A program made the translations under genes and the position numbers. A DNA stretch of 64,000 bases from Thermoguttaceae bacterium (GTDB lineage Bacteria > Planctomycetota > Planctomycetia > Pirellulales > Thermoguttaceae). Position 1 is the stretch's first letter, and the number at the start of each line of letters is the position of its first letter. The stretch lies in assembly GCA_040766885.1 (NCBI GenBank), contig JAXGPP010000008.1:373659-437658 (forward strand), in the 5' to 3' direction. This document shows positions 5,512 through 32,443 of the stretch, in pieces. The notes beneath the pieces were generated by a model that saw nothing but the letters and a program-made list of their open reading frames with translations, was not told the origin of the DNA and searched no databases.

Positions 5512-5521
5512 CTTTCAACAT

Positions 5522-5594: not shown

Positions 5595-5602
5595 CTGAGC
5601 AT

Positions 5603-5863: not shown

Positions 5864-5879
5864 CTTTGAAAAACACGCT

Positions 5880-5948: not shown

Positions 5949-5953
5949 TTGCG

Positions 5954-6027: not shown

Positions 6028-6040
6028 TGACTGCACGACG

Positions 6041-6111
6041 GGCTCGTGGTCCAACGGGACGACACCAGCGCGGCATGCTGGAAACGCGGGTTCAACTCCC
6101 GCCGGGTCCAT
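6041..6111 (+). tRNA. tRNA-Ala(GGC)-like
   Basis: Acceptor GGGCTCG/CGGGTCC (two G-U). Anticodon stem CCAGC/GCTGG with loop GCGGCAT. T-arm GCGGG-TTCAACT-CCCGC. Confidence 0.55.
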
Positions 6112-6117
6112 TGGTTA

Positions 6118-6215
6118 AAAGCAATCAGCTTTCAGCTTTCAGCTTTCAGCTTTCAGTGATGAGTGTAAATCGGACGGCTGAAAGCTGACCGCTGAGAGCT
6201 GATAGCTGCCCATAT
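6118..6215. repeat. Heptamer tandem repeat (TCAGCTT)x4 followed by its imperfect inverted complement, which could form a long hairpin
   Basis: The sequence is cagctttcagctttcagctttcagctttcag ... ggctgaaagctgaccgctgagagctgatagctg. Confidence 0.7.
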
Positions 6216-6290
6216 GGTGTTCGTGGTGTAGCGGTCGCTGCATGGCTGGCTGTGAACCAGCAGGTGGGAGTTCGACTCTCCCCGGGCACC
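6216..6290 (+). tRNA. tRNA-His(GTG) with the G-1:C73 hallmark
   Basis: An extra 5' G(-1) at 6216 faces discriminator C6290. Acceptor GTGTTCG/CGGGCAC. Anticodon stem GCTGG/CCAGC with loop CTGTGAA. T-arm GGGAG-TTCGACT-CTCCC. Confidence 0.75.
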
Positions 6291-6311
6291 CCTTTCGGAA
6301 AGGAGATCACG

Positions 6312-6908
6312 ATGGTCGCCAAGGTACTTGAGCAACCGACGCTGGTGCTGAACCGCAACTGGCAGCCGGTCCACGTGGCAACCGTGGAGCGTGCGCTCGT
6401 GCTGCTCTGGAACGACTCGGCCCGCGTGGTCGATCCGGCCGACTTTCAGCTCTACGACTGGGCCGACTGGTCGAAGCTGCAGCCTGGCCATGGCGAGGCG
6501 TTCGTCCAGGCGGTCCGGTTCAAGCTGCGCGTGCCGGAGGTCGTTGTCCTCAGCGGCTACGACCGCCTGCCGGTGGCCCGCGTGACGTTCAGCCGGCGCA
6601 ACATCTTCAAGCGCGACCACTACACCTGCCAATACTGTAGCGCCCGACCGGGCAGCGAGGAATTGACCGTGGACCACGTGGTGCCGCGGGCGCAGGGTGG
6701 TGTATCAAGCTGGGAGAACTGCGTGCTGGCCTGCACGGCCTGCAACAAGCGGAAGGCCGACCGCACGCCGGAGCAGGCGGGCATGAAACTTCGCAAGAAG
6801 CCGGTCCGCCCGGAGTGGAAGCCGCTTTACGCGGACCGCGAGGTGCGGATCGCCAGTTGGTCGAAGTTCATCAGCGAAGCCTACTGGAACGTGGCACTGC
6901 GCGAGTAG
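6312..6908 (+). CDS. HNH endonuclease embedded in the tRNA array
   Basis: Strong RBS GGAAAGGAG 6 nt before the ATG at 6312. The HNH motif reads DHYTCQYCSARPG ... LTVDHVVPRAQGG ... NCVLACTACNKRKADRT (His-Asn-His with CxxC/CxxC zinc ligands). Confidence 0.85.
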   Translation: MVAKVLEQPTLVLNRNWQPVHVATVERALVLLWNDSARVVDPADFQLYDWADWSKLQPGHGEAFVQAVRFKLRVPEVVVLSGYDRLPVARVTFSRRNIFKRDHYTCQYCSARPGSEELTVDHVVPRAQGGVSSWENCVLACTACNKRKADRTPEQAGMKLRKKPVRPEWKPLYADREVRIASWSKFISEAYWNVALRE

Positions 6909-6916
6909 TGCCGTTA

Positions 6917-6948
6917 CGCCCGGTCCCCGATCACTGATCGGGGACCAC
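6917..6948 (+). terminator. Perfect 11-bp GC-rich hairpin immediately after the HNH stop; no T-run (likely a terminator or RNA-processing hairpin)
   Basis: GGTCCCCGATC-actg-GATCGGGGACC. Confidence 0.45.
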
Positions 6949-6951
6949 TAC

Positions 6952-7021
6952 AGGAGTGTCCTCCTGGGAGAGGAAGCGGTCTCCAAAGCCGCCCGACAGG
7001 GTTCGAATCCTTGCACTCCTG
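6952..7021 (+). tRNA. tRNA-Trp(CCA)
   Basis: Acceptor AGGAGTG/CACTCCT. Anticodon stem GCGGT/GCCGC (one G-U) with loop CTCCAAA. T-arm CAGGG-TTCGAAT-CCTTG. Confidence 0.65.
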
Positions 7022-7047
7022 CTTTTGGAAGATGAGAACGAAGAACT

Positions 7048-7119
7048 GCCGGCGTGGCCGAACAGCGAGGCGGCGGTCCTGTAAACCGCACAATGCTGGT
7101 GCAATTCCAGCCGTCGGCT
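7048..7119 (+). tRNA. tRNA-Thr(TGT); T-loop TGCAATT
   Basis: Acceptor GCCGGCG/CGTCGGC (one G-U). Anticodon stem GCGGT/ACCGC with loop CCTGTAA. T-arm GCTGG-TGCAATT-CCAGC. Confidence 0.65.
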
Positions 7120-7187
7120 CTGAAAAGAGCTCTCAGCAGTCCTGATTTGAGCTGATCGCTGAGGGTTGGCGGCTCACGGGCCGCGAT

Positions 7188-7259
7188 GTCCCGATAGTGT
7201 AGCGGATCGCATCGGAGCCTCCGAAGCTCCAGGCCCTGGTTCGAATCCAGGTCGGGATA
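7188..7259 (+). tRNA. tRNA-Arg(CCG)
   Basis: Acceptor GTCCCGA/TCGGGAT. D region TAGTGTAGCGGATCGCAT. Anticodon stem GGAGC/GCTCC with loop CTCCGAA. T-arm CCTGG-TTCGAAT-CCAGG. Confidence 0.7.
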
Positions 7260-7301
7260 CTCAAGAGGGTGAGACATCGTTGTGCATCCACTCTACTGCT
7301 T

Positions 7302-7374
7302 GTCCTCGGAGTGTGCCGGATCAGCACGCGACCGTGCGAAGGTCGTAGACCAGGTTCGACTCCTGGCGAGGACG
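7302..7374 (+). tRNA. tRNA-Arg with an unusual GCG anticodon
   Basis: Acceptor GTCCTCG/CGAGGAC. Anticodon stem CGACC/GGTCG with loop GTGCGAA. T-arm CCAGG-TTCGACT-CCTGG. Confidence 0.6.
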
Positions 7375-7422
7375 TTTTCGAAGCGTGCGGCCACCGCGAA
7401 ACGGCGGCGGTCGCACGCGAAG

Positions 7423-7494
7423 GGCGCTGGAGCCAGACGGCAAGGCAACCGCCTGCAAAGCGGTTTTACGCGGGTTCGACTCCCGCCTGCGCCT
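7423..7494 (+). tRNA. tRNA-Cys(GCA)
   Basis: Acceptor GGCGCTG/CTGCGCC (one mismatch). Anticodon stem ACCGC/GCGGT with loop CTGCAAA. T-arm GCGGG-TTCGACT-CCCGC. Confidence 0.65.
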
Positions 7495-8075
7495 CTGAGG
7501 CGGTCCGACTGCCGGTTCAGACTACATCCGTTGAAAAGGTGAACCGGTCCGAACCAATTCTCGTCGGCCTTCCTCTAACAAAGATGTCCAACTGCCTGCC
7601 GGGACTACATTCACTGTAACTGAACCGTCTCGGCGAAAACTTCGTTGGGCGTTGTGAGAACACATCGGGCGACTGCCCGGTTGGAGTACATATCGGTTCA
7701 AATCCGGTCGCCCCGACTGAACACTTGCGCGAGCGGGGCGTGGCTCAACGGTAGAGCACCTCTGGCCACCACCTCGTCGCCTATTGAATACAGACCGACT
7801 GCCGGTTGGAGTACATGCCTGAAGAGCCGGGGGTTGTGGGTTCGAATCCCACCAGCGCCACTCACTCACTTGAGCGCTGTAGCTCAATGGTAGAGCACCG
7901 TAAAGTTCTCTGACCAACCCCTCGTCGGTCCTTTTGAGACAACAGGAGACACGACCCGACTGACCGAGTGGAGTACATCCACCATCACCAAGCCTGGGAG
8001 GCGGGAGCTTCCCAATACGGACGGATCTGCGGATTCGACCGTACGGCGCCTCTGCTCATCCCTCGTCGGGTCATG
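7495..8075 (+). ncRNA. Cluster of 4-5 repeated tRNA-like modules sharing a bipartite conserved motif; candidate Y-RNA (YrlA-like) genes directly upstream of the Ro60/Rsr gene
   Basis: The motif GACTGCCGGTTGGAGTACAT and its variants occur at 7507, 7591, 7671, 7797 and 7958. Each is preceded 25-37 nt upstream by CTCGTCGG-like boxes at 7561, 7640 (variant), 7772, 7921 and 8063. Units C (about 7734-7860) and D (about 7872-8050) carry canonical D-arms (GCTCAACGGTAGAGC and GCTCAATGGTAGAGC). Unit C has a T-arm GTGGG-TTCGAAT-CCCAC and an acceptor-like pairing GGCGTGG/CAGCGCC around a ~78-nt insert in place of the anticodon arm. Unit B (about 7675-7726) is an acceptor (TCGGGCG/CGCCCCG) plus T-arm (ATCGG-TTCAAAT-CCGGT) mini-structure. 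GGTCCGA occurs twice in unit A. Confidence 0.4.
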
Positions 8076-8091
8076 CTATGTGAAGGAGGTC

Positions 8092-9723
8092 ATGATGGCC
8101 AACAAGAACCTGTTCGCCAGCCTGAAGAGCCGTTTCGTCCGGGCCGATGCTCGGAATGAGGCAGGAGGCCGCGCGTACGCGCTGGAGCCGAAGCACGCCC
8201 TGGCGCAGCTTGCCGCCACGGGCTGCTTCAACGGCGCCTACTACGCCGGCGCCGACGAGCAATTGGCCACGCTGAAGACGCTCGTCGAGCAGGTGGCCGA
8301 CAATGCCTTCCTCGCGAAGCTGGCGGTTTACAGCCGCCAGCGGGCGATGATGAAGGACATGCCGGTGGCCTTGCTGGTCGTGCTGTCGAAGCGCGATCCG
8401 GCCTTGTTCCGCAAGGCGTTCAATCGCGTGGTGGACAACGGCCGTACCCTGCGCACGATGGTGCAATTCGTCCGCTCGGGCCAGTTCGGCCGCAAGAGCC
8501 TGTCGTACGCCCTGCAGCGGGCTGTCCAGCGGTGGCTGAACTCGGCTTCGGTCGAGAAGCTGCTGTCGGCCTCGATCGGCAACGATCCGAGCCTGCGGGA
8601 CGTGCTGCGGCTGGCGCGGCCGACCCCGGCCGACAACGCTCGGCGTGCCCTGTTCGGCTGGCTGACCGATAAGCCGGTTGAGAAGTGGGCGCCGGCCACC
8701 GAGGCCGACCTGCCGGAGGAGGTCCGTGCGCTAGAGGCGTTCCGCCAGGCGGAGACGGCCGAGGTGCAACTCCAGGCTCTCGGCAAGCTGCGCGCTCGCT
8801 GGGACCTCTTGGCCGATGCGGCCAAGGGTCCGGCGGTTTGGGCGGAGGTTGCCCGGAAGATGGGGCCGCAGGCGCTGCGGATGAACCTCAACACGCTGGT
8901 CCGCCAGGGCGTCATCGGCCCGGATGCCAAGGGAGAGATGGTCGACTATGTGGCGGCGCGGCTGGCCGATGCCGAGGAGATCCGCCGCTCGCGGCAGTTC
9001 CCGTACCAGTTCCTCGCTGCATACCTTAACGTCGGTGACGGCGTTCCGCAGAAGATCAAGTCCGCCCTGCACAAGGCGGCGGAGATCGCCTGCGGCAACG
9101 TGCCGGAATTGCCGGGTCCGATCGTGATCGGACTCGACGTATCGGGCTCGATGAGCATGCCGGTTACGGGTAACCGCGGCCGGGGCGCGACGAGCAAGAT
9201 GCGCTGCGTGGACGTAGCGGCCCTGTTCGCCGCTGCCATCCTGCGCCGCAATCCGGAGAGCGTGGTCATCCCGTTCGACACGTCGGCTTACGAGGCCAAG
9301 GTTGATCCGAGCGACTCGGTCCTCAGCCTGGCCGATCGGCTGGCCCGTTTCGGTGGTGGCGGCACGAACTGCTCGCTGCCGTTGGCCGCGGCCAATGGCT
9401 GGTACGCAAGCCGGAAGTTCGCCGGCTGTGTGCTGGTGAGCGACAACGAGAGCTGGGTCGGCACAGGCCGCGGCGGCTCAACGGCCGTCATGACCGAGTG
9501 GCAGGCGTTCGTCCGCAACCAGGTGCGGTTGCACGGCCGGGGTTTTTCAGGCCCGAAGCTGGTCTCGATCGACCTCCAGCCGTACACCACGACCCAGGCC
9601 CCGGAGCGCAGCGACATCCTGAACGTCGGCGGCTTCAGTGACGCCGTGTTCAGCGTCGTGGCTGCCTTCCTGGCCGGCGACGGCGGCCGGTTCGTCGCCG
9701 AGGTCGAAGCGGTCGAGCTGTAG
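8092..9723 (+). CDS. rsr: Ro60/Rsr orthologue: TROVE-domain ribonucleoprotein with a C-terminal von Willebrand A (MIDAS) domain
   Basis: Strong RBS AAGGAGG at 8083-8089; the ORF opens with a GTG at 8080 and in-frame ATGs at 8092 and 8095. The N-terminal ~350 aa has a Ro60-like pattern ([22 protein letters not shown] ... [33 protein letters not shown]). The C-terminus is vWA-like with [14 protein letters not shown] ... GGGT ... SDNESW. Confidence 0.7.
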
Positions 9724-19905: not shown

Positions 19906-20541
19906 TTGCAGCCCCAGGGGTTGCCGGGAGGAATGATGGACGATTCGGTCAACGTGATTCAACGGGCACAGCATCGTCGGCAGACGGCCGAGGCCATTCT
20001 GCGAGACCTGGACCTGATGAGTCGATGGCGGCAATTCGGCCGGCCGGTCCTGGTAGGCGCGTTGTCGTTCGATCTGGCGGTCGCCCCCGATATCGACATG
20101 GAAGTCTACTGCCCCGAGCTCAAGATTGAACACGGGTTTGAGGTTCTCCGCGAATGCGCGCTGAACGCCCGCGTCACGTCCGCCTTGTTCCTCAACGCCC
20201 TGAACACTCCCGACCAGGCCCTGTATTGGCAACTGAAGTGTCGCGGCGACGATGGCGCGGAGTGGAAGATCGACATGTGGTCCGCGCCCGAGGATTATCC
20301 GCTTCCTCGCGGTGAGCACTTTGTCGGGCCGATGCAGCAGGCCCTGACGCCGGAAACCCGCATGGCGATTCTGACCCTGAAGGAAGCCCGGGCGGCGGGC
20401 GAGTTGCCAGGATTCCTTTCCATCGATCTCTACCGCGCGGTCATTGACGACGGCGTCCGCACCACCGACCAGTGGCGCCAGTGGCAGCAAACCCACGAGA
20501 CGGGTGTGTTGACCGCCTGGAAGCCGGCCCCTGTGGCATAG
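19906..20541 (+). CDS. Nucleotidyltransferase-fold protein (minimal NTase-like); function unknown
   Basis: GALSFDLAVAPDIDMEVYC resembles the GS-x(n)-D-x-D NTase core. The start is uncertain; 19933 is an alternative. Confidence 0.4.
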   Translation: MQPQGLPGGMMDDSVNVIQRAQHRRQTAEAILRDLDLMSRWRQFGRPVLVGALSFDLAVAPDIDMEVYCPELKIEHGFEVLRECALNARVTSALFLNALNTPDQALYWQLKCRGDDGAEWKIDMWSAPEDYPLPRGEHFVGPMQQALTPETRMAILTLKEARAAGELPGFLSIDLYRAVIDDGVRTTDQWRQWQQTHETGVLTAWKPAPVA

Positions 20542-20582
20542 CCGCTGACACGCATGCAGGAACCAACTCGGTCACCTTTTTC

Positions 20583-20900
20583 GGCCCTCGGCCCGGTGGC
20601 ACTGGCGCAGCCAGTGCTCTTCCCGTCCGTCTCTTGCAGCCAAGAACTGGCAACAACGCGTCCGCGAGGAGCGAAACCGTTCCAGGGGGCTTTCTCCTAG
20701 TATGATCGGGTGACACTGGCGAAGCCAGTGCTCTTCACGTGCGTCTCTTGCAGCCAAGAATTGCCGGAAACACGTCCGCGAAGATCGAAACCGTTCCAGG
20801 GAACTTTATCCTAGTATGATCTGGTGCCACTGGCGAAGCCAGTGCTCTTCCCATGCGTCTCTTGCAGCAAGAATTGCCGGAAATGTCTCCGCGTAGTCTA
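20583..20900. repeat. ~120-bp tandem repeat, 2.7 copies, each with an internal 7-bp hairpin
   Basis: Unit: GGTGnCACTGGCGmAGCCAGTGCTCTTCnCGTnCGTCTCTTGCAGCCAAGAAyTGsC...CGTCCGCGA.G..CGAAACCGTTCCAGGG..CTTT.TCCTAGTATGATC. Copies start at about 20583, 20707 and 20827. The hairpin is CACTGGC-gca-GCCAGTG. Confidence 0.8.
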
Positions 20901-21667
20901 GTCCTTTCCGCCAGGGACGGCATGAAGGGCCGAAACAGATCTCCCTCAGTTCCGGCTGCCATGAAACAGCCGGGTGTCCAAGACGACCCTCCACTCTCCC
21001 CCCAAAACATTCAACTCCGGCGGCTGCCACCTTTGTCGTCCCCGATAGGGCTGAATACTGCCGCTTAGCGGCAACTGCATGATTAGCCGGGTGTGCAGCG
21101 GAGCGCACGCCGCCACCCATCCCCATCGGCCTTGCCCGCCTCCGCTCATCCCTCTCCCAGCCGCGCACGCGGCGGCAGCCAATAGCCCACGGCGTAAGCC
21201 GTGGGACCCCGGCCCCGAAAGACGTTTTCTTCCCAAGCCCCATCAGGGGCGACAGCCTACACCGCCGAGCCGAGAACGCGCCGCGTGCCATGTCCTCGGC
21301 TCCGCCGTAGACATGCAGGAACCGCCGCGACCAACTCGCCGCGGAGGCTTTCAGAATCGACCTCCAACTCGCCGCCAGTCCGCTTGGGCAAGAGGAACAG
21401 AACCTTGCGCCAGGCCGTCGCGAAGGCCGCCGCCGTGACGGGGAAGTCTACTTCCGCATGGTTCGCGTTCTCCAGGTAGACGTACTGCCATCCCCGTTCG
21501 TGATCCCCCGAGTGTCTTACACCGGTGTAATAGCCCGTCAAGAGAGCCCCGGGCGTGTTCTGCCGCCGCGTTGGGCGGCATAGCACGCCGGCCCCGTGGG
21601 GCGTTGCTCCGCAACTGTTATCGTAGCCGTGACTTGTGCGGGCACGGACGAGAAGTCCTGGGAGTGT

Positions 21668-21700
21668 TCTGCCGCTCGGTCCGGCGGCAGAACACCCCGC
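21668..21700. promoter_or_regulatory. 12-bp perfect palindrome in a ~1-kb GC-rich ORF-less region, with repeated GCATAGCACGC and GTGTTCTGCCGC words
   Basis: GTGTTCTGCCGC-tcggtccg-GCGGCAGAACAC. The flanking repeats are gtgttctgccgccgcgttgggcggcatagcacgcc and cgcatagcacgctggcc. Confidence 0.4.
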
Positions 21701-21944
21701 CAAGTACAGGAGGCCTTCCGACGGGTAGTGAGGTCACAGGTGGGCTGCGTGTTCTACGCACCGCATAGCACGCTGGCCCACCTTGGGCGACGGGGCGCAA
21801 CTACTTGACTGGTGGGGATTTCAGAGTGAGAATGCGGGCCGTGGTATGGGTGCGATATGTTGCCGGAATCGCCGCGATAAAGAATGACCACGGTTCGCCG
21901 CCGGCGGCAGAATTACACAGTTATGTGCCCGAGGAAGCGTCAGC

Positions 21945-22397
21945 ATGTCCGACAACTGGATCGCGCTCGTGCCGGATGATCCGCGATTCGTTCCCGACGC
22001 GGCGAAACAGCGCAGGGCGCGTGATCGTCTGGCCGAGATTGCTCCTGATGCGGACGAAATCGAGATCAAGGTTTCTGAGAAAGTCGAGTTCTTCGATTGC
22101 GGTGCGAACTTGGAGCGCATTTGCTGTCCATCATGCGGCGCGGAGATTCCGGTCGATTGGTGGCAAGACCGAATGGATGAGGATTACGCCGACGGCTTTA
22201 AGCTGGCGTCCTATGCCACCCCGTGCTGCGGCAAGGAATCAACATTGCATGCACTTGTTTATGAATGGCCACAGGGCTTCGGCCGCTTCGCGCTCGATGC
22301 AATGAATCCCAACATTGGCAAACTATCCGACAAATACAAGCGCGAGTTCGAGAAAATCCTTGGCACAAAGTTGCGGGTCATCTATCAGCACATTTGA
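21945..22397 (+). CDS. Hypothetical small Cys-rich (zinc-ribbon-like) protein
   Basis: 150 aa. Cys motifs CCPSCGAE and TPCCGKE. No family assignable. Confidence 0.45.
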   Translation: MSDNWIALVPDDPRFVPDAAKQRRARDRLAEIAPDADEIEIKVSEKVEFFDCGANLERICCPSCGAEIPVDWWQDRMDEDYADGFKLASYATPCCGKESTLHALVYEWPQGFGRFALDAMNPNIGKLSDKYKREFEKILGTKLRVIYQHI

Positions 22398-23020: not shown

Positions 23021-24375
23021 ATCCTCTCCCGAAATGCCCGAGGATTTCCTGTTGACATTTAGGCCACGCATCATGTATATCCGTATACTTACGAGCGCCG
23101 GGGTCGCGACACACGCGCGCCGGCATCTGAAGAGCCCCTCGCCGGGCCCGCGCTCAACCTGCGCGCCCGGCCCCCAATAATTCACCCCGAGATGAAAACA
23201 CCTACGATTCACGGAGCGACTCACCCATGTCCACTTCACCTCTTGCCTGCACCCGGCACGCGTCTCCCGCTGCCATCCCTGCCGGTTACAACTCCCCTCC
23301 CCGCAACCCTTTACAGCCGTCTAGAACCGCGCACACCTCTAGAGACTTCAACACTCGACCCAAAGGTGGCAGAAAACTTACGTCCGCGTCCCAGGTGCGA
23401 AAACCCTTTTCCGCAAGCACTTACCGCGACGCCCCTCGCCCAAGTCAACCGAAACACCCACGCATATTGTTTCGCTTCGATGGTACAAAGTACCATCCGC
23501 CGGCTGCCGAGATCGATCGGGTCGCCTCCCGGACCGGGCGCTGCCCGGCGCCACCGCCGTTCTCCGCGAAGTGCAGCGGGCTCGCTGGCGGCTCGAATGG
23601 GGGAACCTCGACCCGCGGTCGCTTCCGTTGGTCGCAGTCCTGCTGCCAAGGCCGCTCAGAGCCGATCCGATGCCGCAGCAGTGGTGCGCATGACGTCCGA
23701 TCTGCTCCGCCACTACCGCGAGGCCCGGTTGGCCGACTTCGCCAAAGCTCAGAATCCGGTGCACAAGCGGTGCAAAAGGCGGTGCAGCGACCTTCCGCGG
23801 CCATTCGAGAGCAACCGCAAGAAACGACGCAAGCCCTTGGATTTACAAGGGCTTGTGCTGATTCCTGCGAGTTGTCGCTGATCCCTGCCAGATCATCAGC
23901 GGAGAGGACAGGACTCGAATCGCTTGCCGTAACGACATGCAGCCAAGCAATTTACAGGATAGCGGCAAGCCGGGCGCTGCTGCCGGCGCTGCTATCGACG
24001 CACCAATCCCCACCGTAGACGACGAACTGGGCGAGGTGATAGCGGCGTGGGCGGGGCTGCCCTTGAGCATCCGGCAGGCGGTGCTGCGACTAGTGCGAGA
24101 GGCAAGCGGAAGTAAGGCATCGCAAGGGGACGTAAGGGGGTGAGTCTCACGGTAAGGAACAGCACCCGGCAGCAAGGGCACGACCGCTAACGCACAACCG
24201 AAGCGACAACGCCCCTTGCCCTACGGGCAGGCAACCCCGCCCCCGGCAGCCCCCCAATCGCAAGCCTGTATCATCTACCTTGACTGAGGGGATTTTTTTT
24301 ACCCCAAAAACCGTGAAGATAGGCAACCTGTTTACAACCCAATCACAACCCAGAGGCAATGGAAAGGCCAAAACG

Positions 24376-24660
24376 ATGCAGCCTGTAACGACAACGGAAG
24401 AGTACGAAACTTTCGCCGTGGTGGTGCGGAACGAGGTGAAGTCGCTGCGTGATTCAAAAGGCCGTGCCGTCCGCTTCGCCGAGAGGCTGAATCAGATGTA
24501 TCGGGAATATGGTGATTTGGAACGGGCATTCGTGCGGAGGGTGAGAGTCAAATACACAGTCACAAAGGTTTTGGAGTTTTGTGACGCTGACGGCTTGGAG
24601 TGGAGCGACGACGAGGCCCCGGCGGGCAGTGAAGCCGGGGATCACGTTGAAGGGGCCTGA
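24376..24660 (+). CDS. Hypothetical protein (island cargo)
   Basis: 94 aa from MQPVTTTEEYETFAVVVRNEVKSLRDSKGRAV. No family. Confidence 0.4.
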   Translation: MQPVTTTEEYETFAVVVRNEVKSLRDSKGRAVRFAERLNQMYREYGDLERAFVRRVRVKYTVTKVLEFCDADGLEWSDDEAPAGSEAGDHVEGA

Positions 24661-24888
24661 CGCATCGTCAGACGCGATCGGGCCCGAGGGGGCGGCTGCT
24701 GGGCCATGGTAGCCGGCGGGACGCTCCTGGGGCCAGCGTTGACGATCGGACGGGCAAGGGGATAGGCTACGACGATCAAACAACCCCGCGGTGGTAGCTC
24801 CCCGCGGCGGGCTGGCCCGGCCGGCGCGAAGTATCTTGCCTTTCGCTTCGCGCTGGCTGGCCGGCATTGAAAGAAAGGCAACTCTCCC

Positions 24889-25773
24889 ATGCGAGTGGAT
24901 CAAAGCCCGATCTTCACCGAGGACGGCACGGCCCTGTACCGATTCGCCTACCTTGCGGCGAAGGAATTGCTTGCGACCGTCCAGGAATGGCGGAACACAA
25001 TCGAGGGCAGTCGGCCGGCTGACTACTCCCGGGCGAGAGATGAACTTAAGGCTCTCTTGCGTCACCTTGAGTCATGGCTGTGCCCGCCAGTGCGGGACGG
25101 GGAACCGATCGACCCCCGCGATACGCCCGATTGGCGAGACCTGCCCGGCGTCTCGCAACTGAACCTCCGGGAGGAGTTTGTTCAAACTCGCAATGCTGTT
25201 TGCAGCGGATTGGGATTCTCGGCACTCTGCGCGCATGAGGTTGTCTGCGAGCTTGCGTTTGAAACGATCAGGGCCGTGACCATGTTGGCTGCCACAAAGG
25301 ATCGGGCAACCCTCGATTTCCTGCTGGGCCCGAAGTCTCCCCTCCGATTGAGCGGCGGTCTCGGGCCGATCGACCAGAAGGACGCGGAGCGGCTCGAAGC
25401 TGAGTGCTTGCAGGAAGCGGAGGAGGCTTGGCGGGCATCTCGGCCGGGCAAAAAGACGAAGGAGACGGCGCCCGTGGCATCCAAAGAAGCATCCCCGGTG
25501 GCCGCGAGTGTATGCGTGAAACTGTACGGGCTGAATGATTCGCCGATTGTCAACGGCAAGAAGAAACGCCGCCTGACTAGAGCGCGGTACGATCTCGTGT
25601 TGGCACTTGTTGAGGCCGGCGAAAACGGCCTGACAGGAGATGAACTAGTCAAAGCGAGCGGGCACGGCGATTCCGTGAAGACTATGAAGCGGCTGGCCGA
25701 CAGCGATACCGACTGGGAAGCCGTGCTGGTCTTCCCAGTCACAAACTACAGCGGCGGCTATCGCATCAAGTAG
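24889..25773 (+). CDS. Hypothetical protein (island cargo), possibly with a C-terminal winged-helix
   Basis: 294 aa. The C-terminus reads RARYDLVLALVEAGENGLTGDELVKASGHGDSVKTMKRLA. Confidence 0.45.
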   Translation: MRVDQSPIFTEDGTALYRFAYLAAKELLATVQEWRNTIEGSRPADYSRARDELKALLRHLESWLCPPVRDGEPIDPRDTPDWRDLPGVSQLNLREEFVQTRNAVCSGLGFSALCAHEVVCELAFETIRAVTMLAATKDRATLDFLLGPKSPLRLSGGLGPIDQKDAERLEAECLQEAEEAWRASRPGKKTKETAPVASKEASPVAASVCVKLYGLNDSPIVNGKKKRRLTRARYDLVLALVEAGENGLTGDELVKASGHGDSVKTMKRLADSDTDWEAVLVFPVTNYSGGYRIK

Positions 25774-25891
25774 GCGGCGAGCCTCGACCAGTCCCCACGT
25801 CTGCCCACCTTTTCCCCACCTTTTCGCCCACGTCTGCCCACCGCCGCGCGCCGTAAGTTACCTCCAGACATTTGCGACCCGTTGTCTGGAG

Positions 25892-26095
25892 GTGCTTATG
25901 AGTGACATGTTGACCGCGAAGGAACTGGCCGCGCGACTGCGCGTGACGGTGCCCACCGTACACGCGTGGCATCGACGCGGTTGGATTCCCTGTCTGCGAG
26001 CGGGCCAGCGGCCGGTGTTGTTCGACCTGCCGGCCGTGGAGTCAGCATTGCGAGAGCGCGCCGAAAGGCGGCAGGGGGCGGCCGATGCAAGCTGA
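25892..26095 (+). CDS. AlpA/MerR-like HTH excisionase-family protein
   Basis: LTAKELAARLRVTVPTVHAWHRRGWIPCLRAGQRPVLFDLPAVESAL. Confidence 0.65.
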   Translation: MLMSDMLTAKELAARLRVTVPTVHAWHRRGWIPCLRAGQRPVLFDLPAVESALRERAERRQGAADAS

Positions 26096-26294
26096 CCCCA
26101 CCCACACAATCAAGCTCCTGCTTTCGGCGCGCGAAGCGGCGAAAGCCCTATCCATTTGCGAGAAATCGCTATGGTCGGCGACTGCCCCGCGCGGTCCGGT
26201 CCCCTGCGTCCGCATCGGTGCGCGGGTGCTCTACGCGGTATCCGATCTTGAGCGGTGGATTGATGGCGCGAAAGGAAACAGCGATGAGCGGTAA
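26085..26294 (+). CDS. Second AlpA-like HTH excisionase-family protein
   Basis: LLSAREAAKALSICEKSLWSATAPRGPVPCVRIGARVLYAVSDLERWI. Confidence 0.6.
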   Translation: MQADPTHTIKLLLSAREAAKALSICEKSLWSATAPRGPVPCVRIGARVLYAVSDLERWIDGAKGNSDER

Positions 26295-26484
26295 GCTAAC
26301 GGCGATCATCCAGTCAGCCCATGCCACGGCGCGCGAGTGCGACGAGCGGGAAATTAGACGGCTCCTTTCCACCGACGCTGCGCTTTTGATGGGGGCGGCG
26401 ATTCTGGCCGACGCGATCGACCGCGCGGCTGAGCGAATTTCGGACGCGATCAAAACCAGCGGAGGGCGGCGCAATGGCAAATAA
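26284..26484 (+). CDS. Hypothetical small protein
   Basis: 66 aa, MSGKLTAIIQSAHATARECDEREIRRLL..., translationally coupled with its neighbours. Confidence 0.35.
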   Translation: MSGKLTAIIQSAHATARECDEREIRRLLSTDAALLMGAAILADAIDRAAERISDAIKTSGGRRNGK

Positions 26485-28615
26485 TGAGACACTGCTGGCC
26501 GATGATCGGCCCGCCGATATTCTCCCGCATCATTGGACGAAACTACTAGGGTCTGACCTGACCGCGGAAATCGTACGGGCGGCGGGCATTCGCTCCGAAA
26601 CGGAGGCCCCGAGGGCTTCCGCCATGCTGGGCGTCCCGCGATTCTCCCCGCGATGCCTGCCGGCGCTAGTGATCCCTTACCGGGATGCGGCCGGGCAGAA
26701 CGGCTATTGTCGGCTTCGCCCTGATCATCCCCGGACCAGCGGCGGGAAGCCCGTCAAGTACGAGAGCCCGCGCGGCCGGCCCAACGAAGTCTACATCCCG
26801 CCGGGCGTGCATCCGGTTCTGCCCGACCCGCAACGCGAGTTGCTTATTACCGAGGGCGAGTTGAAGGCCCTGGCAGCGGTGCGAAATGGTTTCCCGTGCA
26901 TCGGGCTGGTGGGTGTGTTCGGCTGGAAGCCGAAGAAGCGGGAAACGCTACTGGCCGCGCTGGAGCAAATTGCGTGGCGCGGCCGGCTGGTATACATCGT
27001 TTTTGACAATGACGGCGACGGCTTGAAGCCCGAGGTAGCGGACGCGGTAAGCCGGCTGGCCGCGCAGTTGGTGAACCGTGGGGCGGTGGTTCGCGTGGTG
27101 CGACTACCGGCCGGCGAGCCTGGCGCCGACGGCAAACAGACCAAGATGGGCCTGGACGATTTTTTGGTATCGTGCCGAGCCCGCGGTTTGGATCCGGCCG
27201 GCGAATTGCGGGCCCTGCTGGACGCGGCGGAAGACCCCGAGCCGGTGGAGGGCGGGCGGGCAAAGGAACCGGCAAGCAGCTGTGACGCGGTGTTGTCGGC
27301 AAGCGACCTATTGGCCAAGACTACACGGGATGGTGTGCCCAAGCTGCGATTTTGGCGCGGCGACTGGTGGTATTGGCAGGCCGGCGCTTACCGCGAAATG
27401 CCGGCTTCCGAGGTTCGGGGTATTGTGATTGAACATCTGGATAAGTCCTACTACAAAATCACCACCGGGACGACAACCAACGTACTCGATGCGCTGAAGG
27501 CGAAGGCTCGGCTGTCCCATCGCGTTGTGCCCCCGGCATGGATCGGCGGCGATCCGCCCGAGGGTTGGAGGCCGGGGGATGTGCTTGTGGCCAAGAACGG
27601 GGTGATTCACCTACCTACGTTGACGGCCGGCGGGGATGACTACATCCGGTTTGCCACCCCGCGGTTATTCACGACCTGCGCTGTCGATTACGAGTTTCGC
27701 ATCGACGCCCCGGAGCCGGCGGCTTGGCTAGGGTTCCTCGACCAACTATGGGGCCGTGACCCCGAGAGCATAGAAACGCTGCAAGATTGGTTCGGGCTTT
27801 GCTTGACCCCTGATACCAGCTTCCAAAAGGTCTGCCTACTCATTGGCCCCACGCGATGCGGCAAGGGAACTATTAGCCGTGTGCTGCGGGCAATGATTGG
27901 CCCCGAGAACGTATGCGGTCCGACCCTGGCGTCTCTCGGCGGCAACTTCGGGCTTGAGCCCCTGCTGGGCAAATCGTTGGCGGTGATTAGTGACGCACGG
28001 CTGGGACATCGCACGGACCAATCGATTGTCACCGAACGGCTGCTGTCTATTTCGGGCGAGGATGCGCTTACGGTAGACCGCAAAAATCGGGAGTCGGTGA
28101 CCTGCAAACTCGATTCTCGGTTGATGATTCTCAGCAACGAGCTTCCCCGATTGTCCGATGGGAGCGGGGCGCTGGCGGGGCGAATGATCATTCTCCGGTT
28201 TACGGAGAGTTTTTACGGGCGTGAGGATCGGGAGCTAACCGACAAACTGCTTGCCGAGTTGCCCGGCATTTTGTTGTGGGCGATTGCCGGCTGGCAACGA
28301 CTGCGGGAGCGGGACCACTTGATTGAGCCGGCGAGTGCGAGGCAACTGGCCGGCGATCTGGCCGACTTGGCTTCCCCAATTTCAGCTTTCGTGCGGGACC
28401 GCTGCATCGTCTCGCCCGGCTACCGCGTGCCCACCGATGACCTCTATGCAGCGTGGCGGCGGTGGTGCGAGGCTAACGGGCGGCGGGAGCCGGGAACGGT
28501 TCAGACGTTCGGCCGCGATCTGCTGGCAGCGGTACCAGGTTTGGAAGGTACTCGGCCGCGCGACGGCGACGCGCGGTACAGAGCCTATGAGGGCATCGGG
28601 CTGGTGGCTGGATAG
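26474..28615 (+). CDS. Phage/plasmid primase-helicase (P4/D5 family: N-terminal primase-like, C-terminal SF3 NTPase)
   Basis: 713 aa. Acidic DNDGDG motif. Walker A LLIGPTRCGKGTISRV and Walker B MILSNELP. Confidence 0.75.
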   Translation: MANNETLLADDRPADILPHHWTKLLGSDLTAEIVRAAGIRSETEAPRASAMLGVPRFSPRCLPALVIPYRDAAGQNGYCRLRPDHPRTSGGKPVKYESPRGRPNEVYIPPGVHPVLPDPQRELLITEGELKALAAVRNGFPCIGLVGVFGWKPKKRETLLAALEQIAWRGRLVYIVFDNDGDGLKPEVADAVSRLAAQLVNRGAVVRVVRLPAGEPGADGKQTKMGLDDFLVSCRARGLDPAGELRALLDAAEDPEPVEGGRAKEPASSCDAVLSASDLLAKTTRDGVPKLRFWRGDWWYWQAGAYREMPASEVRGIVIEHLDKSYYKITTGTTTNVLDALKAKARLSHRVVPPAWIGGDPPEGWRPGDVLVAKNGVIHLPTLTAGGDDYIRFATPRLFTTCAVDYEFRIDAPEPAAWLGFLDQLWGRDPESIETLQDWFGLCLTPDTSFQKVCLLIGPTRCGKGTISRVLRAMIGPENVCGPTLASLGGNFGLEPLLGKSLAVISDARLGHRTDQSIVTERLLSISGEDALTVDRKNRESVTCKLDSRLMILSNELPRLSDGSGALAGRMIILRFTESFYGREDRELTDKLLAELPGILLWAIAGWQRLRERDHLIEPASARQLAGDLADLASPISAFVRDRCIVSPGYRVPTDDLYAAWRRWCEANGRREPGTVQTFGRDLLAAVPGLEGTRPRDGDARYRAYEGIGLVAG

Positions 28616-28623
28616 GCATTGGT

Positions 28624-28741
28624 CCGCGATGGTCCGCGGACCACTTATCTATATGGCAACTTTGGTAGTAAGAAATAAAATTCCCGCGAACATATGTGTG
28701 TAAAGAGAAGAGTGGACCGCGGACCACTGCGGACCAACTGG
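28624..28741. promoter_or_regulatory. Pair of perfect palindromes TGGTCCGCGGACCA flanking a short AT-rich stretch downstream of the primase; putative operator or origin
   Basis: Sequence: gatggtccgcggaccacttatctatatggcaactttggtagtaagaaataaaattcccgcgaacatatgtgtgtaaagagaagagtggaccgcggaccactgcggacc. Confidence 0.45.
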
Positions 28742-29117
28742 CCGCCCCCGTGGCTGCCTGCCGGTCCGGCAACTGCCCCCGAGCCGGCGAAAATCGAGCC
28801 CGTGGCGGCGGTTTCCGCCCCGATTCTCCCGCCCGCCCCGAGCGATCCGCCCCGGCTATCCCTGCCCATTCCGGCGGCCGGCGGCGGGCGACCTGCCCCG
28901 CAGTGGCCGGCGGCGCTGGCTGACTGGGCGTTGCTTCTCACCCCTGACGATCTCCCCGAGCGGCTCCGGCTGCGTCCGGGAACCGTGGTGATTGACCGGC
29001 GGCGATTCCTGGCATGGCTGCGGGCTGACATCCTCCGGGGACCAGAGGGGCCGCGGGCCATGTACGGGGCGATCCAGTCCGACTTGCGTTGTCTGCGCAA
29101 GGCTTTGATTCCAGACC

Positions 29118-30251
29118 GTGAGGAACCCTATGTTGAATGAACCAGTAATTCAAACCTCGAAAGACGGCCGGCGCATGGTTTCGGTCCTTAACCCGCCCAT
29201 GCGATCGACGGGCCCGAGACAGTACCAGCCCTGGCGGTTTACTGATCTTCAGCCCGGCCGGTGGCGAGTCTACGCAACCTGGCTGCCCGATCCGGCGTAT
29301 GCCACCAATGCGCCGTTTGCGATCATCGACGGCCGCGAGCGCCTTGGCGTGGTCCGGGTCAACCAGCGATTGGCGCCGAGCGATCTTGTCGCCACGGCTG
29401 CCGACGCGGCACCTTGGGCCCTCCTGGGCGCGTTCGACATCTTGAGTGGGACGCTGCAAGTCATCCTGACGACCAGCGAAGCCGATGGCGTGGTCAACGG
29501 CGAGGCTGTCATGATCGCTTACGACGGCCCGATTCTCACGGCAAGCCGCCCTCTCCTGGCTGCCTCCCCGCTCGATAGCCCGGGCACCATTGCGGGCGAG
29601 TGGCAGAAGCTCCCCCCGCCCTGTGAGTTGCGCAACCTCGACGTGAGTTGGCATATCGTGCGGGATCCTTACGACCCTTTGCAGGATCTCGACATCACGA
29701 TCCGCTGTGCGACATGCGGCGAGGATTGCGGGCCGTCCGACAACGCCGAATGCCAGTGCGACGATGGTATCACCCAGCGGCGGTTGCCGAAAAACCTGAC
29801 GCTGACGCTGACCAACAAGCTGTTCTGTAGCCGGCTCGACGGCTCGTATCCAATGACCTACCACACCGACCCCGAGCCGCCGACACCGGGGTCAAGCTTC
29901 TTTGAGTTTTGGGATTCGCCAATCTTCCAATGCCACTTCAACACCGGGTTCTTCTTGCGTCTGTTCTGCGCCGAAGCCGGGGTCCAGAGTTTCATCCTGC
30001 AAGCGATTGTCGCCCCCGGCGCGACGCTTCATACGATGTACTTCGCCAATGAGTGCAACGGGGCATTCACGCAAGACCAGACCAGCGATTCCGCCTGGGC
30101 CTGCGCGGCGAGTACCTGTGACCCCCTGCGAATCGTTTTCCCCGACCTGTTGGAAGAGGGCGTTTCGGGCGGTTTTGCCAACAACTGTTGCCAAGAGGAT
30201 CACGAGGGGGACGACCGAGAGCCTCGTCTAGCCGTGGAGATTACCGAATGA
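29118..30251 (+). CDS. Hypothetical Cys-rich protein (island cargo); no recognisable family
   Basis: 377 aa. Multiple Cys clusters: RCATCGEDCGPSDNAECQCDDG and FANNCCQEDHEGDD. Confidence 0.5.
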   Translation: MRNPMLNEPVIQTSKDGRRMVSVLNPPMRSTGPRQYQPWRFTDLQPGRWRVYATWLPDPAYATNAPFAIIDGRERLGVVRVNQRLAPSDLVATAADAAPWALLGAFDILSGTLQVILTTSEADGVVNGEAVMIAYDGPILTASRPLLAASPLDSPGTIAGEWQKLPPPCELRNLDVSWHIVRDPYDPLQDLDITIRCATCGEDCGPSDNAECQCDDGITQRRLPKNLTLTLTNKLFCSRLDGSYPMTYHTDPEPPTPGSSFFEFWDSPIFQCHFNTGFFLRLFCAEAGVQSFILQAIVAPGATLHTMYFANECNGAFTQDQTSDSAWACAASTCDPLRIVFPDLLEEGVSGGFANNCCQEDHEGDDREPRLAVEITE

Positions 30252-30772
30252 ACATGGGCCGTTGTCGTGATTGTCCGGTTCCACCGGAGGGTGAGCGGTT
30301 TTGGTGCCAGCGACATGGGGTCTGGAAGACCGCGCATCACCGGGAGCTATGCCGCACGAAGCCGAGCTACTTTGCCGCGTGGGAACGCGGCGATGGGCCG
30401 GGGCAGCCCGGCTGGCCGATCCGCCCGAAGTGGGCGTCCATTGGCTGGCCGGAGTTGCTGTACGCCTATCTGCGGCGTGGTGACGAGTGGATCGAATTTC
30501 GGATGGAGTTTCGGGCCGGCTGGTTCAGCGGTGCGGTGGACGCGGCCGGCAAACGGCTGGCCGTCTGGCTGTCCACCGAGGAACCCAAGCTAGTGTACGC
30601 GATTGGCGCCGAGCCGACCGACGATCCTCCCGCCGATGCCCCGACGATCTTGCTACCGCTGGCCGCGGACGGGCAAACGTGGAATCCCGAGGTTTCGTCG
30701 CTCTGGCCGGACCCTCCAATCCTCTGGGCGAGAGACGTTGGCGGATTCGGCGGGGTGATTGCGACGGTCTGA
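30248..30772 (+). CDS. Hypothetical protein (island cargo)
   Basis: 174 aa from MNMGRCRDCPVPPEGERFWCQRHGVW. Overlaps the previous stop codon. Confidence 0.4.
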   Translation: MNMGRCRDCPVPPEGERFWCQRHGVWKTAHHRELCRTKPSYFAAWERGDGPGQPGWPIRPKWASIGWPELLYAYLRRGDEWIEFRMEFRAGWFSGAVDAAGKRLAVWLSTEEPKLVYAIGAEPTDDPPADAPTILLPLAADGQTWNPEVSSLWPDPPILWARDVGGFGGVIATV

Positions 30773-30823
30773 AACGGACGATTCCCCCTGCGGTTGACAA
30801 TTGGACAAGTAACGGATAGGATA

Positions 30824-31045
30824 ATGTCGATGAGCAAAAAACCGCGACTACTCACCGAGCAACTGCGGCAAGCGATCCTCGATGCCGGGGAAACTCGCTA
30901 CGCGATCTGCAAGGCGACGGGTATCGGGCAGGACGTGTTGAGCCGATTTATGAGCGGCGAGCGCGGCCTGTCGAACCGCGTCATGGATCGGCTGGGCGAG
31001 TACCTTAAGTTGGAACTGGTGAGCCGGCGGCAGAAAGGCAGGTGA
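30824..31045 (+). CDS. Small HTH DNA-binding protein (phage regulatory/XRE-like)
   Basis: MSKKPRLLTEQLRQAILDAGETRYAICKATGIGQDVLSRFMSGERGLSNRVMDRLGEYL. Confidence 0.55.
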   Translation: MSMSKKPRLLTEQLRQAILDAGETRYAICKATGIGQDVLSRFMSGERGLSNRVMDRLGEYLKLELVSRRQKGR

Positions 31046-31049
31046 CACG

Positions 31050-32381
31050 ATGGCGAGCATTCTGGGACGCAACGGCCGCCGAAGCGTGCAATTCTACGGG
31101 CCCGACGGCGCCCGCAAGACGCTTTCGCTTGGCAAGGTTTCTCAGCGGCAGGCGGAAACCGTCCGGCTGAAAGTCGAATCCCTCCTGGCGTCGGCAATCA
31201 CGGGCTGCGCTCCAGACCGGGAAACGGCGGCTTGGCTGACCACGCTGGACGACGTGATGACTGACAAACTGGCGAGCGCTGGCTTGATTGCCCGGCGATC
31301 GTCGGCGACCCTGGGGGGCTTCCTTGCCGAGTACCTGACAAGCCGGATCGACGTGAAGCCGGCAACCCGGGAAGTTTGGTCGCAAGTCGAGCGAAACCTC
31401 AAAGAGCATTTCAGCGAAGGCCGGGCGCTGCGGACGATCACTCCCGGCGATGCGGAAGGCTTCCGGTTGTACTTGGTGGCCCAAGGACTAGCCCCGACCA
31501 CGGTTTCCAAGCGGCTGCAATTCGCCCGGCAATTCTTCCGCGCGGCGATGAAACACAAGCTGATCACCGAGAACCCGTTTGCCGAAGTGCGATCGAAGGC
31601 GGCGACGGATTCGGGCCGGCAGCGGTTCATCAGCCGGGACGACACGGCGAAGCTACTGGAAGCCTGCCCGTCCCTGGATTGGCGGCTGATCGTCGCCCTT
31701 GCCCGTTACGGCGGGCTGCGGTGCCCGAGCGAAGTCCTGTCGCTCCGCTGGCAGGACGTGGACGCGGCCCGCGGCCGGCTGACCGTGACGAGCCCCAAAA
31801 CCGAGCATCACCCGGGCAAGGATACGCGGGTCATTCCCCTGTTCCCCGAACTGCGGTCGATCCTCCAGGATGCTTTCGACGCGGCTCCTGACGGATCCGT
31901 GTACGTCGTCAACGAACGGTTCCGGCAATCGTCCCAAGGCAAGGCCGGCTGGAGGAACTGCAACCTCCGCACCAGCTTTGAGAAGATCATCCGGCGGGCC
32001 GGGCTGACCCCCTGGCCCCGGCTGTTCCACAACCTGCGATCCTCCCGCGAAACGGAACTGGTCCAGGCTTATCCCGTCCAGGTGGTCACGGCTTGGCTGG
32101 GCAACACCCCGGCGATCGCTTTGAAACACTACCTCCAGACAACGGATGAGCACTTCGCCCAAGCGTTGTCCGGCAGCGCGCTGCTGCCGGCGCTGCCGTA
32201 CCCGTCCGCAAACGTCACCCCGAGCGGAACATTGCCCGTCGTAACCTGTGGTAAGGCTTCGCAAGAAAACGAAACAACCCCTTGCGAAACAAGGGGTTGT
32301 ACTGAAACTTACGACCGTTTACCAAGCCTTACGAAAATCATCAGCGGAGAGGACAGGATTCGAACCTGCGGACCCCTTTGA
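31050..32381 (+). CDS. int: Tyrosine-type site-specific recombinase / phage integrase
   Basis: 443 aa. The catalytic region has RLIVALARYGGLRCPSEVLSLRWQDV, HNLRSSRETELVQ and AWLGNTPAIALKHYLQ (R..H..R..Y). The 3' end abuts tRNA-Ser. Confidence 0.85.
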   Translation: MASILGRNGRRSVQFYGPDGARKTLSLGKVSQRQAETVRLKVESLLASAITGCAPDRETAAWLTTLDDVMTDKLASAGLIARRSSATLGGFLAEYLTSRIDVKPATREVWSQVERNLKEHFSEGRALRTITPGDAEGFRLYLVAQGLAPTTVSKRLQFARQFFRAAMKHKLITENPFAEVRSKAATDSGRQRFISRDDTAKLLEACPSLDWRLIVALARYGGLRCPSEVLSLRWQDVDAARGRLTVTSPKTEHHPGKDTRVIPLFPELRSILQDAFDAAPDGSVYVVNERFRQSSQGKAGWRNCNLRTSFEKIIRRAGLTPWPRLFHNLRSSRETELVQAYPVQVVTAWLGNTPAIALKHYLQTTDEHFAQALSGSALLPALPYPSANVTPSGTLPVVTCGKASQENETTPCETRGCTETYDRLPSLTKIISGEDRIRTCGPL

Positions 32382-32443
32382 GGAGGTCACGGGTTTAGCA
32401 AACCCGCGCTTTCGACCACTCAGCCACCTCTCCAAGTGCGTGC
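32355..32443 (-). tRNA. tRNA-Ser(GCT), class II; integration target
   Basis: The reverse complement reads GGAGAGGTGGCTGAGTGGTCGAAAGCGCGGGTTTGCTAAACCCGTGACCTCCTCAAAGGGGTCCGCAGGTTCGAATCCTGTCCTCTCCG. Acceptor GGAGAGG/CCTCTCC, anticodon loop TTGCTAA, long variable arm. Confidence 0.8.

Follow-up and report, generated by a model that had tools for sequence, protein, structure and literature searches.

A tandem hairpin repeat in a planctomycete genome and its likeness to the small intergenic repeats of bacteria

A short direct repeat with a hairpin in every unit lies downstream of a small gene in a 64-kb stretch of the genome of a Thermoguttaceae bacterium (phylum Planctomycetota; GenBank contig JAXGPP010000008.1), and it raises the question of what kind of genetic element such a repeat represents. 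An earlier sequence-only reading had offered three options, namely tandemly duplicated small RNAs, attenuator-like elements or a REP-like family. The whole 64-kb stretch is called the window below, and all array coordinates are given on its scale. The strongest tandem array of the window by far, as determined with Tandem Repeats Finder, was located at positions 20595-20878 (period 114, 2.5 copies, 88% matches, score 428), and a second direct-repeat search of the window returned the same register of 114 nucleotides (nt). Both searches bear out the tandem direct repeat that had been described; however, the measured period is 114 bp instead of about 120 bp, and the array begins at 20595 instead of 20583 and ends at about 20936-20942 instead of 20900. 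The array consists of three head-to-tail units within positions 20595-20942, as follows.

20595-20708, plus strand: repeat unit 1, 114 nt, with loop GCA in its first hairpin (H1); covariance model score 122.8 bits
20709-20822, plus strand: repeat unit 2, 114 nt, with H1 loop GAA; 86% identity to unit 1
20823-20942, plus strand: repeat unit 3, about 114-120 nt, with H1 loop GAA; covariance model score 97.2 bits

An alignment of successive 114-nt frames showed that unit 3 is of full length, carries a 1-nt deletion in its second hairpin and is strongly diverged over its last third. When the units were globally aligned and compared with shuffled sequences, the z values were 31 for units 1 and 2, 19 for units 2 and 3 and 13 for units 1 and 3, and by the same comparison nothing past approximately 20942 could be aligned to the unit. 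Two GGGTG motifs 117 nt apart had hinted at degenerate units 4 and 5 after unit 3; these candidates showed no similarity on testing and were rejected. The conserved 3' tail previously ascribed to every unit is common to units 1 and 2 only (CGAAACCGTTCCAGGG), whereas its counterpart in unit 3 is CTAGTCCTTTCCGCCAGGG. Because the units abut without spacers, the array is not a CRISPR array, in agreement with the sequence-only reading.

Each unit contains a perfect 7-bp inverted repeat, CACTGGC-N3-GCCAGTG, which has no further occurrence in the 64 kb (0.06 expected by chance), and a second hairpin (H2) downstream of it.

20600-20616, no strand assigned: hairpin H1 of unit 1, CACTGGC-GCA-GCCAGTG; the inverted repeats of units 2 and 3 lie at 20714-20730 and 20828-20844
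20627-20650, plus strand: hairpin H2 of unit 1, CCG-TC-TCTTG-CAGC-CAAGA-AC-TGG; the counterparts in units 2 and 3 lie at 20741-20764 and 20855-20877

The 7-bp stem that had been noted before is thus present in all three units, whereas the GCA loop noted with it belongs to unit 1 only. The general layout of the element is GGTG or GTGG, a stable hairpin of 7-9 bp, a pyrimidine-rich CTCTTCC, the weaker H2 and a less conserved tail.

To look for the element elsewhere, one genome for each of 185,579 species was scanned with the pattern ACTGGCGNAGCCAGTGCTCTT. Three loci were found, one of which lies inside a coding sequence and was discarded as a chance match. The other two are contigs of one uncultured Planctomycetaceae metagenome-assembled genome (MAG; binchicken_co43_353), in which the copies are arranged as follows.

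Contig L002, 4684-4792: MAG copy A, complete, with H1 loop CCC
End of contig L002 and start of contig L003: MAG copy B, of which the first 53 nt stand at the end of L002, 133 nt after copy A

The unit is therefore not found only here, which the sequence-only reading had named as one mark of a recent local duplication without function. Copy B falls at contig ends, and L002 and L003 overlap by 56 nt exactly inside the element, an overlap that probably reflects a break of a k=55 assembly graph at the repeat. Unit 1 and MAG copy B (L003 3-86) share 96% identity over 84 nt, loop included, and unit 1 is 85% identical to MAG copy A. Unit 1 thus resembles MAG copy B more than it resembles the adjacent unit 2, whereas the other non-coding DNA that aligns between the two genomes (block X, see below) is 75-89% identical; this suggests spreading subfamilies and not a recent local duplication. 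On the left, all copies share a sharp boundary at (G)GGTG, and the right boundary in the MAG is GCTGCA, which gives a length of about 108 nt. Since this free-standing length is close to the 114-nt period of the window, the array is built of whole elements. The sequences flanking the MAG copies are unrelated to the flanks in the window, the neighbours in the MAG are ordinary chromosomal genes (sulfatase, PP2C-like phosphatase, membrane proteins and glycoside hydrolase), and the orientation of the element relative to neighbouring genes is inconsistent between loci. The element accordingly occurs at unrelated intergenic sites in two genomes, in either orientation and in subfamilies common to the two.

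In a comparison of the five full copies, those of the window and those of the MAG, the stem of H1 did not vary but its loop did, and the CTCTTC stretch between H1 and H2 and the H2 apex CTTGCAGCCAAGAA are both invariant. The outer pair of H2 is C-G in one subfamily and G-C in the other, and in related hairpins (see below) one pair of the H1 stem switches on both sides from T-A (U-A) to G-C. H2 is weak in the folds of the window copies; in MAG copy A, closure of the internal loop extends the stem to 9 bp (-12.5 kcal/mol). A G-U pair in H2 is possible on the plus strand only. Covariation is thin with so few sequences, the observed score being attained by 9/500 and 23/500 shuffles. A fold of the unit had been recommended as a check: H1 folded alone gave -14 to -16 kcal/mol (z about -3), whereas whole units folded no better than shuffled sequences (z from -0.5 to -1.3, with one at -2.6).

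These observations place the array among the small intergenic repeats that are ordinary bacterial DNA, not a new genetic system or mechanism. The reading that we prefer, and to which we give roughly an even chance, takes the unit for an interspersed repeat of the REP/MIRU kind that is confined to one lineage, has been amplified locally into a short array and would act through its hairpins as a 3'-end barrier. Of the three options offered previously, the REP-like one fits best, because the element recurs at unrelated intergenic sites and its 5' hairpin module is similar to hairpin repeats that stand alone elsewhere (see below), and the small RNA and attenuator options fit less well for reasons given below. 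Under the preferred reading, a small non-autonomous element of about 108-114 nt, found in a narrow planctomycete lineage, would spread or be copied as a unit. Once two copies adjoin, the array could grow or shrink by unequal recombination or replication slippage, in the manner of a minisatellite. Any effect on the host would come from the hairpins. The array is followed by approximately 320 nt of non-coding DNA, and with a plus-strand gene on one side and a minus-strand open reading frame (ORF) on the other, it lies between convergent transcription units.

19936-20541, plus strand: upstream gene, 201 amino acids, identical to protein P0001; unit 1 begins 54 nt after its stop codon (listed as context)
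21257-21520, minus strand: small ORF with a coding-type signal in the GC content of third codon positions (GC3), converging on the array; only a weak Pfam hint (context)
21159-21205, minus strand: Acido-Lenti-1 RNA motif (RF01687), matched with 42 bits (gathering score 37); its distance to the array is 220 nt

Three strong palindromic hairpins would therefore form in transcripts that arrive from either side, that is, from the gene whose stop codon is at 20541 or from the minus-strand ORF and the Acido-Lenti-1 region. By analogy with REP sequences in enterobacterial 3' untranslated regions, such hairpins may block 3' exonucleases or read-through. The array would then not be a set of independent small-RNA genes.

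How closely does the element follow known repeat systems? In its behaviour it comes nearest to REP/BIME sequences as regards the hairpin module, and to MIRU-type or neisserial mosaic repeats as regards head-to-tail arrays of a dispersed unit. The plan of REP, BIME and REPIN sequences, a short intergenic palindrome with a conserved tetranucleotide 5' of the stem, is shared by the unit, in which the tetranucleotide is GGTG or GTGG. A hairpin within the 20-40-nt range with such a tetranucleotide, GGTG(N)-CACTGGC-N3-GCCAGTG, was found in all copies, and it differs from the classical REP tetranucleotide, which is GTAG. As in REP sequences, the loop varies while the stem is kept, and the array sits at the 3' flank of a gene, between convergent genes. 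In contrast to REP sequences, the unit is 108-114 nt long and only its first 30 nt or so (GGTGg-CACTGGC-loop-GCCAGTG in each unit) are REP-like; moreover, its copy number appears low, with one locus in the 64-kb window and two or three copies in the MAG by exact pattern; REP sequences are dispersed in tens to hundreds of copies per genome. REP and REPIN sequences are mobilised by RAYT transposases, and no RAYT was seen among the approximately 45 ORFs of the window and the MAG that were scanned against Pfam. Inverted doublets of the REPIN type (GTGG-hairpin...hairpin-CCAC) were found only in related phage contigs (L025, L026 and L040, see below), whereas the window and MAG copies are all direct and head-to-tail.

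A head-to-tail, non-coding and intergenic unit without spacers is likewise seen in MIRUs and bacterial minisatellites. MIRUs are reported by Supply et al. to be non-coding units of 40-120 bp, present at several intergenic loci of a high-GC genome and typically in tandem copies without spacers. What we found is one head-to-tail array in the window and copies at a non-orthologous site in a second genome. However, MIRUs contain small ORFs coupled to flanking genes and have no prominent hairpin, and they show no sequence similarity to the unit. In neisserial mosaics, dRS3 inverted repeats alternate with RS blocks of 50-150 bp, and dRS3 sequences are prophage integration targets; here, too, a short palindrome (H1) alternates with a less conserved block of about 95 nt between convergent genes. 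The sequences are nevertheless unrelated, and no link to a prophage target was found at this locus, where the nearby island uses a tRNA-Ser att site. The size class (about 100-150 nt), the intergenic and non-coding character and the recurrence in related genomes recall MITEs such as Correia, ERIC and RUP elements, but the unit has no terminal inverted repeats or target-site duplication, and MITEs normally form no abutting direct arrays. Integron attC sites are single long imperfect hairpins with R''/L'' and L'/R' boxes (RYYYAAC ... GTTRRRY) that bound gene cassettes. An attC identity was rejected, since the unit folds into separate short hairpins, no R boxes were recognised on reading and no cassette ORFs lie between the units.

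A hairpin related to H1 also occurs free-standing. Besides the element, window and MAG have one further piece of non-coding DNA that can be aligned, which we call block X (window 23040-23498 and L003 5795-6361, minus strand, the alignable stretch being 23040-23480 and 5819-6361; 75-89% identity). In the MAG, block X is interrupted by insertions of a short hairpin repeat, GTGGCACGGGCTTCCAGCCCGTG, with at least 5 copies in L003 (5758-6436, minus strand), partly as tandem units of 33 nt. This repeat and the first 30 nt of the element have in common GTGGCAC-GGC, GCC-GTG and a following CTTCCC; relative to the stem of the element, T-A is replaced by G-C on both sides, and one copy is paired via U-G. 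An exact 21-mer of the repeat was present in five phage contigs (L025-L029), a number that we judged to be far above chance, and the two contigs that were checked (L025 and L026) carry tail(-tube) and portal genes. An inverted doublet, GTGG-CAC(G/T)GGC-TTCCA-GCC(C/A)GTG, an A/T-rich linker and CACGGnCA-GGAT-GnCCGTG-C(C/T)AC, was located in L025 (6359-6430), L026 (6925-6995, minus strand) and L040 (5138-5190); the hairpin forms its first half, and the arrangement looks like a REPIN or a bidirectional terminator.

A scan of viral sequences for the H1 stem of the window gave 12 matches, most of which were estimated to be at chance level for 18 specified bases. Two of the matches stand out. Contig L040 has the stem of the window with a 5-nt loop in the doublet architecture. 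The 10.9-kb viral contig L039 contains four palindromes of the form (G)GTG(G/C)CACTGGC-N3-GCCAGTG (919-935, 7970-7986, 8661-8677 and 8688-8704), two of which abut with a period of 27 nt. As for block X itself, it starts with a promoter-like TTGACA-N17-GTATAT (23053-23081) and ends with a hairpin whose sequence differs in the two genomes; it showed no Rfam match and no conserved reading frame, and it may be an undescribed RNA of approximately 400 nt or a long leader.

Several observations weigh against an interspersed, REP/MIRU-like repeat. The term interspersed relies on few copies (one locus in the window and two or three in the MAG), and the element lies within 2-6 kb of block X in both genomes, so the two loci could be related after all. 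No transposase or RAYT gene appeared among the window ORFs that were scanned, and a search of the units and their flanks revealed no terminal inverted repeats and no target-site duplications, the only inverted repeats being the internal hairpins. H1 is not followed by a U-tract, and a role as terminator is thus unsupported by the consensus scan. A functional RNA would likewise be compatible with the constancy of the H2 loop and of CTCTTC.

Furthermore, no copies beyond the MAG were found in a metagenome scan, in related planctomycete contigs or among translated spurious ORFs in two protein databases. The metagenome scan, with CTCTTC-N9-11-CTTGCAGCCAAGAA, gave seven matches, all due to chance; as the exact H2 apex was required, this is a weak negative. 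Contigs L011-L024, which carry the closest homologues of the upstream gene (76-78% identity; about 109 kb in total), are non-syntenic and lack both the element and block X. Six-frame chimeras of the unit, aligned and searched once with and once without linkers, scored nothing among the word-sharing candidates listed (at least 8000 in each search), and the single match of a 61-amino-acid ORF within the repeat units in an exhaustive HMMER search (P0121) proved to be a translated CRISPR-like array and was rejected as chance. The full unit gave nothing in scans of viral collections or, by blastn, in plasmids. With filters off, a covariance model of the five copies detected no further full copies in the window or in the MAG contigs. 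The repeat family is real but narrow.

Whether the units encode a product can be judged from their coding and transcription signals. GC3 periodicity, which is strong in the flanking genes, collapses from 20500 to about 21280, the core of the unit is open in all six frames, and an excess of synonymous changes was found in no frame; the region is therefore non-coding, as had been supposed. It is barely credible that each unit encodes a small protein from a 34-codon GTG-to-TAG frame on the plus strand of units 1 and 2 (MALAQPVLFPSVSCSQE...). This frame is open in both MAG copies as well as in the two units, but so are the other five across the core, and codon differences are mostly non-synonymous in every frame (13 synonymous versus 56 non-synonymous in the proposed one). 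In addition, unit 3 is frameshifted, the region has no GC3 signal and no homologous ORF product was found in the two protein databases. A second possibility, which we regard as unlikely, is that the units arose by tandem duplication of a gene whose product is a trans-acting small RNA about 110 nt long; H1 would be its protective 5' hairpin, a single-stranded CU-rich CUCUUCCCGU would pair with purine-rich mRNA targets, and H2 with its conserved loop would follow. Tandem small-RNA families (Listeria LhrC1-4, Vibrio Qrr and Nostoc NsiR1) are similar in their length of about 110 nt, intergenic tandem arrangement, hairpins and C/U-rich stretch. A small RNA would also be consistent with the conserved stems and variable H1 loop, with one compensatory pair per hairpin, with G-U pairs that fit the plus strand only, with the invariant CTCTTC and H2 apex, and with the conservation of the sequence in a second genome. 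However, each gene of those families has a promoter and a Rho-independent terminator, and a consensus scan of 20300-21000 detected neither a sigma-70-like promoter nor an intrinsic terminator. At the two junctions between units, a -10-like TATGAT can be read 9 nt ahead of H1, but it is missing upstream of unit 1 and of both MAG copies, where the left flanks are unrelated up to GGGTG; since the left flanks are not conserved, no conserved promoter can drive a plus-strand RNA. The whole-unit folds described above were no better than those of shuffles, and the 96% identity extends over positions that are free to vary between paralogous units, which points to recent copying rather than selection. 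Rfam, which had been suggested as a check, left the array without a match, both when the whole window was searched at the gathering threshold and when the locus was searched at E<=10. In favour of a small RNA, the Acido-Lenti-1 motif, a known candidate small RNA, lies 220 nt away, and in supplementary file 61 of PMC2864571 it stands inside tandem units of about 192-200 nt in Lentisphaera araneosa (NZ_ABCK01000026 and NZ_ABCK01000002); the array units, by contrast, do not match its Rfam model, and the motif near the array is on the opposite strand. The same file shows one Lentisphaera unit with a hairpin, GUCUCUUGG...CCAAGAAC, that resembles H2 and reads GGUCUCUUGG-GAUCG-CCAAGAACC; as a relative of H2 it was rejected, as neither BLAST nor nhmmer supported it. 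The conserved strings of the unit were absent from the 200 of the 438 supplementary files of the Weinberg 2010 motif paper that were searched. The attenuator that had also been proposed is unlikely for two reasons: loci differ in how the element is oriented relative to neighbouring genes, and only the subfamily of unit 1 and MAG copy B offers the alternative pairing, between AACTGGC and the 3' arm of H1. We see only a slim prospect of something more novel, either an undescribed structured RNA family of Planctomycetota and their relatives in the Planctomycetes-Verrucomicrobia-Chlamydiae (PVC) group, with tandem genes and perhaps acting together with Acido-Lenti-1, or a new type of non-autonomous mobile element with a GTGG-hairpin end that inserts head-to-tail beside its own copies via a single-strand transposase.

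The remaining alternatives concern DNA rather than RNA or protein. The array might consist of double-stranded DNA sites, in which the 7-3-7 palindrome, present three times at 114-bp intervals, serves as an operator or centromere-like site of a dimeric protein, for which the sopC repeats of plasmid F and dispersed phage-repressor operators are parallels. The palindrome is indeed perfect and invariant in all copies, the same palindrome occurs four times in the phage contig L039, and an integrated element lies 3 kb away. We nevertheless consider such sites quite improbable. Loops of 3 nt and 5 nt (the window versus L040 and the MAG hairpins) shift the half-sites in a way that is ill-suited to a dimer, and one copy is paired only via a U-G wobble; the same stem with differing loop lengths argues for a hairpin in single-stranded nucleic acid and not for a double-stranded site. 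The array is also outside the att-bounded island, has no adjoining partition or repressor gene and contains approximately 95 nt of additional conserved sequence per unit that binding sites would leave unexplained. Alternatively, the array could be a neutral local duplication (minisatellite or variable-number tandem repeat, VNTR) without function or mobility, the MAG copies being the orthologous segment in a rearranged neighbourhood. One locus per genome region sampled, the vicinity of block X in both genomes and the lack of detected mobility machinery are compatible with this, and yet we find it distinctly unlikely. Units of the array are 12-14% apart whereas unit 1 and the MAG copy differ by only 4%, which places the duplication before the split of the genomes or makes it independent of that split. 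Moreover, the immediate flanks and gene neighbours are unrelated, the repeat period coincides with the element boundaries, and the H1 module is common to free-standing hairpin repeats elsewhere.

With regard to the surroundings of this REP/MIRU-like array, the upstream gene has many homologues in Planctomycetota, with up to 78% identity. It had been called nucleotidyltransferase-like, and a G-x(n)-DxD-type motif can be read from its sequence, but Pfam gave no match and no solved structure was matched significantly (best E 0.024). Its homologues in L016-L018, L023 and L024 stand among small accessory-type genes (GrpB, acetyltransferases, methyltransferases, glyoxalase and nitroreductase), a tyrosine recombinase gene is near those in L016, L017 and L023, and fusions to DUF3795 occur among the homologues; the gene appears to belong to variable genome regions. 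On the other side of the array, the Acido-Lenti-1 match lies in a planctomycete and thus in neither of the two phyla that gave the motif its name. A hairpin, CGCCCCUGAUGGGGCU (21236-21251), is located 30 nt upstream of the match, and 15/16 of its bases agree with a hairpin at the same relative position by the Koribacter copy in supplementary file 61 of PMC2864571. A second local repeat (21545-21699 and 21893-21912) is composed of long hairpins, GTGTTCTGCCGC...GCGGCAGAACAC, present twice at a spacing of 109 nt with a partial third copy, in a non-coding stretch upstream of a 150-amino-acid ORF (21945-22397).

Coding density and GC3 between 20.5 and 33 kb are below those in the rest of the window. 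An integrated element of about 8.4 kb (23892-32366) resides in tRNA-Ser(gct) (32344-32433, minus strand) and is bounded by a direct repeat of the tRNA-Ser 3' end (23892-23921 and 32337-32366). Its genes include an integrase (31050-32381), a helix-turn-helix (HTH) protein (30794-31045) and a DUF3854/DUF5906/Pox_D5 primase-helicase-like protein (26474-28615). We rejected the array as an edge (att site) of this island, as it is 3 kb outside and no third att copy occurs near it. The sole canonical terminator-like site near the locus (23830-23855, minus strand; a 10-bp stem, CAAGCCCTTG...CAAGGGCTTG, with a T-rich tail) is just left of the left att site of the island. Near the beginning of the window, 28 tRNA genes form an array (2756-7495) with an HNH endonuclease ORF inside it (6252-6908); this array is preceded by a gene for a sigma-54-dependent activator with a GAF domain (659-2599) and followed by one for a Ro60/TROVE-vWA protein (8080-9723). 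This layout recalls Rsr/Y-RNA loci; no Y RNA was found by Rfam.

To our knowledge, there are hardly any descriptions of small interspersed repeats from Planctomycetota. Cataloguing such repeats would aid genome assembly, since the MAG contigs break at the element, and could also benefit annotation and the choice of markers for strain typing. If the hairpin module is truly common to planctomycete chromosomes and phages, it might serve as a marker that links phages to their hosts, and it could point to a REP/RAYT-like system with a different recognition tetranucleotide. The main value of the finding is descriptive, together with the hint of a GTGG-hairpin family common to planctomycete chromosomes and phages, and it represents a modest addition to a well-known class of repeats.

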